Positions 33,001 through 38,673 are shown, numbered from the stretch's first letter. The stretch: 38,787 bases of DNA from Escherichia coli (GCF_003334385.1 NZ_QOWN01000040.1), one strand, 5' to 3'. Program-made: the numbers.

Positions 33001-36000
33001 ACAGCAGACACATACTGCTGACAGTATATTCTGCCGTCCTGTCATAAACAGCAGAAACAAAAGAATAATATTACCAAATGCATTCTTCTCTGTATATCCA
33101 CAACACCATGAAACAATTACAGAAAATAACAGACAAACGAGAACTTTTTTATTCACTGCATGGATGCAGAAATTTCTTACCCCACTCAGAAAATATTCGG
33201 ATTTTTCTTGCGCGCGTAACTTACCTGGCATTCTTTACACCGATACAGACAGTTAATTAAATATTCATGGGCACTTTATGTGAAATAGTTCACAAAAGTA
33301 TCTCACACCTGTACATTCCGGCACCTATGATACCAACAAGAATATTTTCAACAACTCATTCCCTGAATTCATAAGGCACAAAATGATTATAACGCCTCAC
33401 AACCACGAGGCGTTAATCATAATGCATTTAGTGTATAAATATACCTTTTGCTCTTTTAGAGAGATAAATATACAAAATAAAAAGAACAGCAATAACGCCA
33501 TCAATAAATATGTTTTCAATACTTCCATCAGGAGTATAATCAATCCCAACAATATAAAAACAATAGACATAACTTACAGCATAATAAACGATATAAACAA
33601 GATAAATATACAGAAGCAATCTGTTAACATGTCTTTTTCTTCTAAAGAAGGAGAGTATAAAATACATACATAACACAGAAAGAATAATAAACACCCCTAT
33701 AGATATAATAAAATACTCTTTTACCTGTGAGTCTTCGTGCAGCGACATGTACAATGAATAAAAAGTTCCAGCCAGACTCAGCCTTGTGATAAATATATAA
33801 ACAACAGACAAAAGAATAATAAAAAGAACTATACCAAACTTTGGTCTTTTTTCTTTTTGTAGCATTACAGCATTTTCCTTCATCATATACACGTTCTTTA
33901 CACTATTCCTGTAAAATTTCGATAAAAGCTCATCAGATTTTGTGTGAGGACGGTGACAAAAAATGAGTCCGGTTTTTAAAGGGTATATGCAGAAACCATC
34001 CGTGTGGTTCCGGTCAGCGTGTCTGAGACCTCAACATCCCGGGTGATGATTGTCATTCCGGACTGACGCAGCCGCTGCACATCTGCGGCAATACGCTGAA
34101 TACCAAGCCAGAACAGACCATCCAGCGCGGTGACAATTAACCCGCTTTCCAGCGCCAGTTTCAGCCGTGCTGTCGGAGCTTTAACCTCCCCGGCTATATC
34201 AGTGAAACAACGTGTCGTCATGCCATAGCTGTCCACCCGCCGTATTCGCGTCGCAAGACTGTAACTGAAGCTATCAGGCACGCCGGATAAGTCATTCTGC
34301 AGACTGTATACACATCCCCGCTGCCGCTCATTGAATACGACTTTTTTCTGGCTGAGCAGCCATTCCCGCCGCAGGCTGTCAATCATCTGCGGTGTCCGGG
34401 TTAACAGCAGACGAAACGGCAGTTCAAAACTGGTCACGTAATCAACATTCAGCAAAGCTGTCCGTAGCCGCTCCCTGGCACCTGCTCCGGTATCACGGCA
34501 TTCACGCATGACATCTGCCCACTGGCGCATCAGTCGCGGAGACTCATTCCTAGCCCTGAACTGATATTTCTCAATCTGATAATCAATATGTTCCTGCATA
34601 CCGTCACCGGATATCTGTTGCCGTATCATCACGGATATCAGCGTACTGGAATTCATGCCCTGCGTGAAGTATCACACTGCCAAAAAAAACACACCTGAAC
34701 GTTATTATTTCGCAATATTAATTGCACCTGTTTTCATAAATAAAAAGGAGACGATGAAATGATAAAATATATCTTTTCACTCACCATTATTTTTTCCGCT
34801 TCTCTCTGTGCCGCACAGATTCAGGGGCACGTCATCCGCGTTCTTGATGGTGATACGCTGGAAATATTACAGGACAAAAAGCCTGTCAGGGTCCGTCTGG
34901 CTAATATTGATGCACCGGAAAAGAAACAGCCCTTTGGACGCTGGTCAGCCACTCAGTTGAAGGACCTGGTGGCCGGAAAGCCCGTAACCGTGCAATACGC
35001 GCAGACAGACAGGTATGGCCGTATTCTCGGCCGGGTCTATACCGCTGACGGCACAGAAGCAAATCGCTGGCAGGTCCGTAACGGCGCTGCCTGGGTGTAC
35101 CCGGACTACAATAATGACTATACTCTCCCGCCGCTCCAGCGTGATGCCCGCGCCCTGAAGCGGGGATTATGGGCAGATAAAAATCCGGTACCACCATGGA
35201 CCTGGAGAAAACAGAATAAAGAATAATTATTTGCTGATATGAAGAAAAAAACCATTTCAAAGAAAATAAATGGCAAAAATACAGCATGGGGAAAAATTGC
35301 CATTTTTACCGCCGCGTTATTTTTAATATTTGCTGTCAGCTGGCCGTAATAAGCAGAATAACAGAAAGGTGTAAAAATGAACCTGGTTGATGCATTTGTC
35401 ACTAAAGTGATATCCGGACCGTATGAAGAATACGGAAAATGGTGGGTGGATGTTGAATATATTTCCTGGGGAGTTCCGGGTAAAAGCCGGCTCATGTTTG
35501 ACTCACGGGAACAGGCACAGGAAGTGCAGGAAGGTTTTCGATTTTTAACCTGAGCATATTTTGTTAAAGGGCAGAAGGCGGTGACCCTCTGCCCTTAAGT
35601 ACGTTTCCGGGATTATCAGTCAACCAGTTCCCGGATCAGTTCCAGGATTGCTATCACTGCGTTAGCCACAGCAACAACCGCCCTGAGAACGATGATTAAC
35701 CTGTTAATCATCCGCTTCTCCATCAATGGAGAAAGAACACCGTGGTTTGCCCTTACATTGCCTGTCGCCACGTTTTCTATAGTGTCAGTTATAGACAGTT
35801 CTTCTCCGGCCAGAGCACCAAAACCAGCACCACCTGATGTTTTGGCCAGGACTTGCAACCTGTTCATCCCGGTGAACGATATGCCGGAAAGAACGTGCCT
35901 CAAAGCTGACACACCGAGTATATACTTATACTGTGCTTGCAGAAATATTATTTCAGCCGTATTATTTCATAGTCAGTTATAGGCAGTTATCTTCCGGTCA

Positions 36001-38673
36001 GGGCTACCAACTTCGATCCGGAATCGCAAAAAAACCGGCCTCACCAGTCGGTTTTTTTGCGTCTGTACCTCCTCCCCGGACAGCAGTTCTCTCACTCCCG
36101 TTGAATATTTCCTGTTGAATTTTACGAAAATACGGCAAATGGGAGATATCGAATATATTTACTTGGGTGTAGTCGGTAAAAACCAGCTCATGTTTGACTC
36201 ACAGAAACAGGCTCTGGAAGTACAGAAAGTAATCTGTCCGTAGATTATTAAAGGGCAGAGGGCGGTGACCCTCTGCCCTTAAGTACGTTTCCGGGATTAT
36301 CAGTCAACCAGTTCCCGGATCAGTTCCAGGATTGCTATCACTGCGTTAGCCACAGCAACAACCGCCCTGAGAACGATGATTAACAGGTTAATCATCCGTT
36401 TCTCCATCAATGGAGGAAGTCACCGTTGCTTGCTCATACATCGCCTGTCACAACGGCTCTCTGACATTGTTGGATGTAGAGTACATTCCCCCCTGCCAGA
36501 GCACTGAACACAGCACCACCTGTTTGTTCAGCCAGGACTTTAATTCATCCATACACAGATAGAACAGGTTTTAGAAGCAAGGGAGGCACACTGTACAGCG
36601 CCAACACAAAGATTATACAGATGCACACATAAAATTCATTTAAAGAAATGAATATTGACAGGCAATCTGAAGTCAAACTAGACAACAGATGTCTGGTGCC
36701 ATAATATTATGGATGTTGGATGTAGAGTATCTTCCTCCGGTCAGAGCACCAACTCCGCTCCGGAATCACAAAAAACCGGCCTCACCAGTCGGTTTTTTTG
36801 TACCTGTCTCCCACCACCTTCTGCCGTTCGCTCTTCTCTGTGAAAATGTCCTGTTGAACTCATTCCTGTCCGGTTATTACCGGCGCTGATTCGCATTCAT
36901 GCCACCCGACTTAATCCCGAAATTTATCCATTCATCTATGGAGGAATCCCCGTGTCTTACCAACAGACGTCTGCCGCCGAAGATCCAATGGCTATATGGT
37001 ATATCGTCGGTGCCATATGCCTGCTCTTTGCGATTATCATCTGGCGCTTTTTACCTGAAATCGTCTTCGCCTCCTGCCTGATCCTGCACACACTGTGGGG
37101 CATGATTGACTGGGGGCCCTTTCACAACTTTGCCGCCCCCCGTTACAACCTGCTGGCCATCACTGCTAACAACGCGGCAACCATCACTTTCGGCCAGTGG
37201 CTGGATGTTATGTCCCGGACAGTGGGGATCCTCTGGTTGATTCTGCTTCCCATGACATTCGGCTTTCTGTGGATGTGGTTTCACCATCCGGCCCAGCCCC
37301 GTTTTACCCGCAGGCCACTGAATATCCACACACTGCCCCATATTTTTTCAGCTCTGTCACCGGCGATCGCCCCCGTTCTGGCTGATGGAGACAACAACAG
37401 ACTCTTCCACGGACAAAAACGTCCCGAGCGCCGTGTCGCACTAACCCCCGAAGTCTTTGTGGAGCAGAACAACCTTATCCGCAACATGCAGCTCGATGTT
37501 GCGTCCACACGCCAGTGCTTCATGGCGCAACTGGGGCAACCACTGACCAGCTGGAAAGACATGGCCCCACATGAAAAAGCGCTCTTTGCCATCTTTGGCC
37601 TGCAGTTCTTCCTCGGTGACCGGAAAGCAGCGGTAGCCCTGATGAACAACCTCAATCTCTCCTGCAGGCTCAAAAGTAAACGGGACCAGGGGCGTTTCAG
37701 CACGCCGGTGTATTCACTGGCCAGAAACGCCTTTATCCGGGTCATCAAAACAGAAGGCGCACAACAGTGGCTCAGGCAGCACCGTTACGTTCGCAGCGGT
37801 CTGGTCTGGCTTTACGCACATGATTTGCGCCTGACGCCTCCGAACTGGCTGTGGCTCAAGGGCGTTGACCGGACGCTCTTCTATGCCCTTCACCGGGCAA
37901 ACACCACAAAAGGCTTCATCGAAGGGGCCGGCGTGGTGGCCGTTGCCCGGGCAGAAAATGAAGCCAGCCGTCTCGGCCTCCCCTGCCCGGAACCCTGTGT
38001 GGAAGAGGCCATTGAAGGGCTTCGACGGGACATGCTGGGGCTGGGCCTGATATGGGACGAACCTCAGCCAGATCGCGATCGTAAACGTCAGATCAGGACC
38101 CGCTGGTCACTCACGGATGACGTGATACCCCGCCGCCATGATAACGACGAAGACACTGACACTGGTGAAACCACCGAAACCACCGAAACCACCGAAACCA
38201 CCGAAACCACCGAAACCACCGAAAAACAGCATCCCGCCGACAAGGAAAAAGAACAATGACCATCCACTACACTGCAACACTGAATAATAAACACCTGTCC
38301 CTGACCGCCCTGTACCCTGACGGTAATCGGGAGGTGATTGCCATCCTGCCAGTCACAGAACTGGGCGCACTGATTAACCGTAATAACAGGCTGATGCACC
38401 TGTCCTTCAGTTCCCCTTTTCGCGAAATAACCGAAACGGTGCTTGTTGATACCGTTGATGCAGAACGTCCCGGACATCACATCGGCAGAATGCTCTCAGC
38501 GATTGATGCCTGCCTGGATGCCGAATATGCCGGAAAAGGAAAACATCCCTCCCGGAAAAATGGCTTCTGGCGGACACTGATGTGTGGCTTTATCGCCGGA
38601 ATTGCTCTGCCGGCGACAGTTGCAGGTTACCACTGGATGAAGGCAGAGCCCCCTTCCACGCTGGCTTACCCTA

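Follow-up and report, generated by a model that had tools for sequence, protein, structure and literature searches.

A tandem locus of the DqlB/AgrB type I toxin-antitoxin family on an IncI1/B/O-type conjugative plasmid of Escherichia coli

Do two small, nearly identical toxin genes that lie side by side on a conjugative plasmid form one toxin-antitoxin system in double dose, or two systems that must be silenced separately? The question is raised by a 38,787-nucleotide (nt) stretch of E. coli DNA (NZ_QOWN01000040.1, assembly GCF_003334385.1), hereafter the window, which belongs to an IncI1/B/O-type conjugative plasmid. In it a thermonuclease-family gene is followed by a 58-amino-acid (aa) open reading frame (ORF), two copies of dqlB and then trbA, a plasmid context and not the chromosomal arsR-gor one. 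A preliminary description had taken this locus for that of a type I toxin resembling DinQ, with Agr-like RNAs and a possible role in post-segregational killing, a core reading that is upheld by curated family models and by homologous modules proven on other plasmids (PMC12365149, PMC12317039). We conclude, with a probability of about 0.88, that the region holds two complete and adjacent DqlB/AgrB type I toxin-antitoxin modules, with a mechanism assigned by homology with dinQ. The DqlB/AgrB system is already known, catalogued and validated experimentally on other plasmids; what may be new in the window are details, namely the different AgrB seeds, the stacked alleles, the one-way predicted cross-binding and a loop-inversion variant. 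The case also illustrates that a reader provided with nothing but sequence was able to recognise a very small and easily missed type I toxin-antitoxin locus.

Toxin and antitoxin genes of the two modules

The dql family was defined in 2016 (Kristiansen et al.) on the grounds that its peptide and its 5' leader both resemble those of dinQ (PMC5066626). The two 31-aa peptides of the preliminary description, an R4 form, MINRLIIVLRAVVAVANAVIAILELIRELVD, and an L4 form, MINLLIIVLRAVVAVANAVIAILELIRELVD, were recovered together with the elements of their units; both are encoded on the minus strand, which had been left unstated. They matched over their full length (1-31) the NCBIfam equivalog NF041473, "DinQ-like type I toxin DqlB" (cut-off 35 bits), with 61.3 bits for DqlB1 and 66.2 bits for DqlB2. 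The two toxins differ by one residue, both ORFs are intact, and each is preceded by GGAGAA plus 4 nt (GGAG, 6 nt, AUG). The resemblance to DinQ that the preliminary description had proposed was sound, the window peptides being 48% identical to DinQ (BLASTP). DinQ proper was rejected as their identity in favour of DqlB, because they scored 18.9 and 19.1 bits, below the 30-bit cut-off of the DinQ equivalog NF041472, and because the promoters carry no LexA box.

Two plus-strand ORFs that start in the palindromes described below (96 aa, 35692-35982; 43 aa, 36376-36507) were also considered as coding sequences and discarded as mirror artefacts, lacking a Shine-Dalgarno (SD) sequence and conservation as proteins. 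The palindrome reads ATGATTAAC on both strands, and mirror ORFs (MINLLIIRF..., MINRLIIRF...) consequently occur at every dqlB locus, with a risk of mis-annotation.

Each toxin gene is accompanied by an AgrB gene. The preliminary description listed four sub-repeats, R1 to R4, as possible Agr-like antisense RNA genes; they correspond to the direct-repeat families D3 and D5 (35783-35821, 35971-36009, 36468-36492 and 36714-36752). R2 and R4 are indeed AgrB genes, which matched the Rfam AgrB model RF02891 (gathering score 40) over its full length, 1-84, with 47.7 and 51.8 bits, respectively. R1 and R3 align with the AgrB target of dinQ and are therefore target sites in the toxin leaders, not small RNA (sRNA) genes; since the toxin mRNA is made from the other strand, they show up as repeats of the AgrB 5' end on its own strand. 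As sRNA genes they were rejected, since they gave no Rfam hit at E<=10, possess no AgrB-like body or terminator and lie inside the leaders. The AgrB genes, of 86-88 nt, are on the plus strand, upstream of and divergent from each dqlB, with no overlap with its transcription unit. The duplex of AgrB1 with the dqlB1 leader was calculated at -54.4 kcal/mol, with an uninterrupted run of 16 nt (shuffles, about -29.4 +/- 3.0), and that of AgrB2 with the dqlB2 leader at -55.0 kcal/mol, with a run of 15 nt (shuffled means, about -30 +/- 3). Two of the checks proposed along with the preliminary description, alignment to DinQ/AgrB and a search with RNA covariance models, returned the DqlB model and two AgrB matches.

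The same arrangement is common. In a sample of 18 plasmid loci (IncI, K, X1/3/4/5, HI1/2, FII, L/M and N; L-numbers below denote the plasmid loci compared), 14 carried AgrB divergently upstream of dqlB as judged by the Rfam model at E<=0.01. No hit at this threshold was obtained beside dqlB on the IncL/M and IncN plasmids (L014, L015, L017 and L018); some members of the family fall outside this too narrow model, as the agrB of pOXA-48 has been proven experimentally.

All further elements that had been described were present as well: the GGAGAA sites, the GC hairpins (35567-35596 and 36246-36285), the four sub-repeats and the A-tract/T-tract terminators, of which the A-tract/stem/T-tract unit at 36025-36061 has its core copied at 92% identity within 36770-36807.

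Leader structure and the proposed translational switch

In the primary transcript of dinQ, elements 1 and 2 form stem S1 and elements 3 and 4 close the SD hairpin, stem-loop SL5; in the form shortened by 44 nt, element 2 is freed to pair with element 3 and the SD opens, and binding of AgrB to G88-A119 closes the SD again and leads to RNase III cleavage (PMC5066626). We placed the +1 of dinQ so that the published element coordinates were reproduced exactly, and aligned both window mRNAs to that reference. Both aligned with the dinQ mRNA from +1 to the terminator, and the regulatory parts held in common are the lock between 5' end and target, the AgrB target, the SD hairpin, the start-codon hairpin (SL6) and the terminator (Table 1).

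The preliminary description had put weight on perfect 22-bp inverted repeats around the start codons. These were confirmed: the 10+2+10 palindromes at 35691-35712 (centre CT) and 36375-36396 (centre AG) are the sole two in the window, with no third match at up to 2 mismatches, and no such palindrome appeared in 100 shuffles. When folded, the dqlB1 copy forms 9 bp closed by a 4-nt loop (-6.7 kcal/mol). The structure is also conserved, as SL6 was found in all 21 homologues aligned, with 98.5% of alignment cells paired, versus 11-78% with a slid partner; its changes comprise one compensatory replacement of A-U by G-C (in DinQ-type genes) and three that are wobble-compatible, and the Leu5 codon is TTA in all 21 sequences. 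The start-codon hairpin is real, but it is not the switch, since in dinQ SL6 (G194-C215), which holds the start codon, is present in the inactive and active transcripts alike (PMC5066626). The start-codon hairpin is a conserved RNA structure which, by analogy with dinQ, would be constitutive rather than regulated.

By homology with dinQ, regulation would act on the SD hairpin next to it. A second palindrome, covering the SD sequence (35716-35733 and 36399-36415), had been absent from the preliminary account. In dqlB1 the anti-SD strand, element 3, pairs with the SD, element 4 (GGAG being the complement of 35718-35721), and the probability of the SD being unpaired was about 0 in the folds. The SD hairpin occurs in 21/21 homologues, with extensive covariation. 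Minimum free energy (MFE) folds recovered the SD hairpin, SL6 and the terminator in both modules, and in dqlB1 the S1 stem in addition.

The lock formed by the leader 5' end is best with its own target. The 5' end of the dqlB1 leader paired with its own target at -37.6 (z -5.0) and that of dqlB2 at -29.4 (z -2.9), with non-cognate pairings between the two at -14 to -22. In a matrix of three leaders the diagonal was -34.4, -37.6 and -29.4 and the off-diagonal values -14 to -30, the own target being the best in each case. The alternative pairing of elements 2 and 3 in module 1 had a z of -2.2.

The toxin of each module is a hydrophobic, single-helix peptide of 31 aa, whose gene has a leader of about 200 nt. 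Taking the mechanism from dinQ/agrB, the full-length mRNA would be stable but inert, with an S1 lock in which its own 5' end covers the region targeted by AgrB, and with its SD held in a hairpin. Processing at the 5' end would release the target region, which would then compete with the anti-SD strand and open the SD; AgrB, by occupying the target region, would allow the SD hairpin to close again and make the duplex accessible to RNase III. As long as the cell carries the plasmid, a constitutive and short-lived AgrB would keep DqlB off, and in plasmid-free segregants AgrB would decay first, so that DqlB would be made and damage the inner membrane, resulting in post-segregational killing.

Table 1. 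Features of the two modules and their immediate surroundings (window coordinates; energies in kcal/mol)
Feature	Position	Strand	Remarks
dqlB1 coding sequence, 31 aa	35616-35711	-	MINRLII...; rare R4 variant
dqlB1 promoter -10, TATACT	35922-35917	-	putative +1 at 35910, by dinQ homology
dqlB1 5' lock segment (element 1)	~35910-35867	-
AgrB1 target site in dqlB1 5' leader (R1)	35782-35819	-	includes switch element 2; aligns with dinQ G88-A119
dqlB1 SD hairpin (SL5 homologue)	35716-35733	-	palindrome TTCTCCATCAATGGAGAA; -8.2
dqlB1 start-codon hairpin (SL6 homologue)	35691-35712	-	22-nt palindrome, G(-1)AUG in 5' arm
dqlB1 mRNA 3' terminator hairpin (dinQ SL9 homologue)	35566-35601	-	arms 35567-35578/35585-35596; putative 3' end ~35566
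AgrB1 promoter, TTGCAG/17 nt/TATTAT	35937-35942, 35960-35965	+	read from sequence
AgrB1 sRNA gene (R2)	35973-36060	+
AgrB1 terminator	36025-36061	+
dqlB2 coding sequence, 31 aa	36300-36395	-	MINLLII...; common variant; WP_001388983.1 in NZ_CP069867.1
dqlB2 promoter -10, TATAAT	36617-36612	-	putative +1 at 36605, by dinQ homology
dqlB2 promoter and 5' lock segment	36562-36617	-
AgrB2 target site in dqlB2 5' leader (R3)	36467-36505	-	aligns with dinQ AgrB target
dqlB2 SD hairpin (SL5 homologue)	36399-36417	-	-5.9
dqlB2 start-codon hairpin (SL6 homologue)	36375-36396	-
dqlB2 mRNA terminator hairpin	36250-36285	-	arms 36246-36262/36269-36285; putative 3' end ~36250
AgrB2 promoter, TAGACA-17-TAATAT	36679-36707	+	promoter scan
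AgrB2 sRNA gene (R4)	36716-36801	+	bidirectional-type terminator (D6)
58-aa hypothetical ORF	35377-35553		WP_001054907.1; converges on dqlB1
Degenerate partial copy of 58-aa ORF, 3' half	36115-36243	+	left edge of repeat unit 2, between modules

Specificity, alternative explanations and origin of the tandem

The 5' ends of the two AgrBs are strongly unlike (UCAGUUAUAGGCAGUU versus UUGGAUGUAGAGUA), their first 14-16 nt fit their own target only, and a comparison of plasmids shows recognisable seed classes in which AgrB varies together with its target. The predicted ensemble binding free energies were -29.8 for AgrB1 on dqlB1 and -3.8 for AgrB1 on dqlB2; as calibrators, agrB on dinQ gave -38.2 and agrA on dinQ -24.4. 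Several points weigh against our interpretation. For AgrB2, binding is predicted both to dqlB1 (-25.1) and to its own target (-22.6), so that the independence of the two locks is half supported: in silico it appears clear in one direction only, and full orthogonality of the modules was rejected. The pairing of elements 2 and 3 in module 2 was no better than in shuffles (z -0.7), and folds of 5'-truncated transcripts gave no clear opening of the SD for dqlB1 or dqlB2, and a weak and erratic one for dinQ; for this reason our argument for the switch relies on homology and on the complementarity of the elements and makes no use of MFE folds. What we ascribe to this plasmid in the way of transcription starts, 5' processing, RNA half-lives, toxicity and killing is by analogy with homologues, those tested experimentally having only about 73-76% nucleotide identity over the mRNA. 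Lastly, the R4 substitution of DqlB1 is rare, Arg being found at codon 4 in 1/21 aligned sequences. The cross-binding might mean that AgrB2, and perhaps both sRNAs, represses both mRNAs, the second copy providing dosage or redundancy: the duplex of AgrB2 with the dqlB1 leader (-47.3) includes an 18-nt run through the conserved core, and the toxins are almost the same. We regard this as possible but doubtful, since the AgrB seeds differ at many positions, AgrB1 is predicted not to bind dqlB2, and relatives combine module 1 with a different, third class (L023). Furthermore, a 4-nt mismatch was enough to lose repression on pOXA-48, where a compensatory change restored it (PMC12365149), and AgrA, whose predicted affinity for dinQ is similar to that of AgrB2 for dqlB1, is no substitute for AgrB in vivo (PMC3567139). 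Most likely, the two modules act as at least partly independent locks.

Other explanations concern the nature of the locus. We consider it unlikely that the modules are decayed relics, one or both no longer killing because the R4 toxin is inactive or because module 2 is mis-regulated by imperfect target pairing. Such a view could draw on the rarity of the R4 peptide, which an exact-peptide look-up placed on 44 contigs (named DqlB in NCBI) versus 937 for the L4 peptide, and on the frequency of decay at this locus in relatives (broken toxins with AgrB fused onto the target in L012 and L019; orphan AgrB genes in L007, L010 and L022); however, both ORFs are full length, the structural elements, promoters and terminators are all intact, position 4 of DinQ is naturally Lys, and the tandem is conserved at >99% in many plasmids. 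An SOS- or stress-inducible membrane-modulating toxin like the chromosomal dinQ, instead of a constitutive addiction module, seems more improbable still. The mRNA is homologous to that of dinQ, and a published scan (PMC12211044) called, on the IncI1 plasmid pTF2, a weak LexA site (heterology index, HI, 11.64) that lies upstream of dqlB and the 20-mer of which is identical to window 36518-36537. Nevertheless, no LexA box was present at the putative -10/-35 of either dqlB promoter, and LexA control of these promoters was rejected on that ground; the only CTG-N10-CAG motifs, at 35834-35849 and 36518-36537 (motif from 36520), are located in the transcribed leaders, where they belong to the SL2 stem and follow the proposed +1 by about 70-90 nt. 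The motif of the pTF2 "SOS box" is thus probably a by-product of an RNA stem (SL2 of the dqlB2 leader) and not a LexA operator; moreover, DqlB was not induced in the pTF2 proteome (PMC12211044), and the plasmid homologues behave as addiction modules. Least probable of all is a role of the 22-bp palindromes in the DNA itself, be it as a cruciform or as a site bound by a protein. As DNA they are perfectly palindromic, and the inverted centre of one implies a DNA hairpin or cruciform at least occasionally, but the changes seen among homologues preserve pairing of the RNA type, with G-U wobbles (GUG start, AUC->GUC, AUC->AUU), which are mismatches in DNA, and the equivalent dinQ hairpin is supported by selective 2'-hydroxyl acylation analysed by primer extension (SHAPE) on RNA (PMC5066626).

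How, then, did two DqlB/AgrB modules come to lie in tandem? A duplication about 684 bp apart had been described, and in its geometry this is correct: a 190-nt direct repeat (35546-35735 and 36230-36419) has 94% identity and a spacing of 684 nt, and the full repeat unit, as defined by self-BLAST, measures about 700-740 bp (35429-35854 versus 36129-36540, 80.5%; 35990-36119 versus 36733-36858, 78.5%). The copies look like stacked alleles rather than a simple duplication. Relatives carry at the same locus module 2 alone (L021), module 1 with an orphan class-C AgrB (L022) or module 1 with a complete class-C module (L023, p866), and unit 2 has its own degenerate copy of the 58-aa ORF (repeat D2, 35449-35533 versus 36145-36229, 80% identity). 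This favours an origin in which unequal recombination stacked allelic modules over one in which a module was duplicated in place and the copies then diverged. More speculatively, a stack with different seed classes (A and B here, A and C in p866) might constitute two locks that one foreign AgrB cannot open, with orphan AgrBs serving as anti-addiction keys, an idea that we put forward with rather low confidence. If it is true, the diversity of AgrB seeds would be shaped by competition between plasmids, and the orphan AgrBs of L007, L010 and L022 would neutralise the DqlB of competitors.

The two palindromes differ in their 2-nt centre, which the preliminary description took for a compensatory change. 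The centre is in the loop and does not pair; the change is a 2-nt inversion, present in window dqlB1 and not in its nearest relative. That relative, NZ_CP069867.1 (18700-20700), is 99.6% identical across the locus and differs at exactly 35701-35702, where it has AG and the window CT, the reverse complement of the centre. Among the 21 aligned sequences, codon 4 is AGG only in window dqlB1 and NTG (Leu, Met or Val) in all others. Both the CT/AG centre and the L4R substitution would be explained most economically if the hairpin loop had been inverted once. At 35648-35649 the window has TT and the same relative GA (I22 versus L22), so that at this site copy 1 of the window equals copy 2. Together, these two dinucleotide differences suggest template switching or gene conversion between the copies.

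As for the neighbouring sequences, NCBIfam returned no match for the 58-aa ORF or for a 36-aa ORF upstream. The TrbA (DotM/IcmP-like) protein (36952-38259) ends in a run of Thr-Glu-Thr repeats (TETTETTETTETTETTE), for which the DNA has a short tandem repeat at about 38190-38245.

Distribution and comparison with known systems

The tandem is not confined to the window. RefSeq annotates dqlB twice in NZ_CP069867.1, and at least 16 PLSDB plasmids keep the tandem at 99.5-99.6% identity with dqlB annotated twice. A dqlB-type mRNA was found in >5000 PLSDB plasmids and the close toxin core in 433 plasmids at 570 places, roughly a third of them with two copies. Relatives of the locus occurred in 1439/5426 complete E. 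coli genomes (27%), and 20 records were at least 99% identical to the tandem. The published frequency of dqlB is 83% among IncB/O/K/Z plasmids and 67% among those of IncI1 (PMC12365149). The AgrB RNA is absent from the RefSeq annotation of NZ_CP069867.1, despite both dqlB coding sequences being listed. These points bear on plasmid curing by a supplied antitoxin RNA: IncI/B/O/K plasmids often have two toxin copies, AgrB goes unannotated on RefSeq plasmids, and one AgrB might not neutralise both toxins, their seeds differing.

Related plasmids also contain AgrB genes without an adjacent toxin (L010, 82-169, 455-542 and 701-788; L007, 12-99; L022, 2333-2420), and pSAN1-1727 has one dqlB and three AgrB genes of three seed classes, one of which fits the dqlB1 target of the window at -56 kcal/mol. 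Such orphans may have been left behind by modules that were lost, or they may serve as anti-addiction keys to the DqlB of other plasmids. At L012 (AgrB 851-938, coding sequence 1011-1094) and L019 (955-1038, coding sequence 1117-1215), AgrB lies exactly on the leader target, with a perfect antisense run of 40 nt, and the toxin ORFs are truncated or frameshifted. This configuration fits a deletion between the same-strand repeats formed by the target and the AgrB 5' end, removing both promoters, which would be a means by which the module is repeatedly inactivated.

A further comparison is with hok/sok (parB of plasmid R1). Both are plasmid type I modules of post-segregational killing, with a small inner-membrane toxin, a full-length mRNA that is stable and stays inert until processed, and an antisense RNA that is unstable and forms a duplex cleaved by RNase III. 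AgrB is separately encoded and Sok is encoded in cis, where it overlaps mok and the leader of hok, and there is no sequence relationship; the inert state of hok depends on a 5'-3' fold-back and 3' exonucleolytic processing, whereas that of the DinQ/Dql type depends on a 5'-internal stem and 5' processing (PMC5066626). No sok or Hok match was obtained in 35350-36950. Elsewhere in the window a full-length sok RNA match (29782-29938, minus strand, 125.6 bits) points to a hok/sok-type module about 6 kb from the dqlB pair, and in the IncI1 relatives L003, L005 and L010 sok/hok stands directly beside AgrB/dqlB. Tandem divergent toxin/sRNA pairs are also known from the zorO-orzO/zorP-orzP locus of E. 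coli O157:H7, where each sRNA reportedly stays specific for its own toxin mRNA through a small number of mismatches in the pairing region; its toxin and sRNA family are unrelated, and it is chromosomal, with no known role in plasmid maintenance.

With the K-12 dinQ-agrA/agrB locus the window modules share mRNA homology, SL2, SL4, SL5, SL6 and SL9, the sRNA family, the repeats and, as proposed here, the four-element switch. In K-12, however, only the sRNA is duplicated (agrA, agrB) beside one toxin, whereas the window repeats whole modules of toxin and sRNA. The K-12 gene is chromosomal, between arsR and gor, with LexA operators over its promoter (TACTGTATGATTATCCAGT), a GUG start and a DinQ of 27 aa.

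The closest known systems are the DqlB-AgrB modules described in 2025 on pOXA-48 (IncL), for which the reports cover toxicity with ghost cells, its rescue by agrB and a rescue from the killing that curing induces (PMC12365149), and on the IncX3 plasmid pOXA-484, for which toxicity and plasmid stabilisation were reported (PMC12317039). The text of the pOXA-48 paper holds no description of a tandem, a duplicate or cross-talk, and the literature searched yielded no experiment on DqlB-AgrB from an IncI1/B/O backbone. The window differs from these plasmids in having two tandem modules instead of one and an IncI1/B/O backbone, in a leader and mRNA that are about 73-76% identical to theirs, in its AgrB seeds and in the L4R substitution of one toxin. 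Like them, it combines a toxin of family NF041473 with a divergent AgrB that acts in trans and can pair with about 30-35 nt of the 5' leader, an SD hairpin, a start-codon hairpin and a plasmid site beside transfer genes, and by analogy with them post-segregational killing would be expected.

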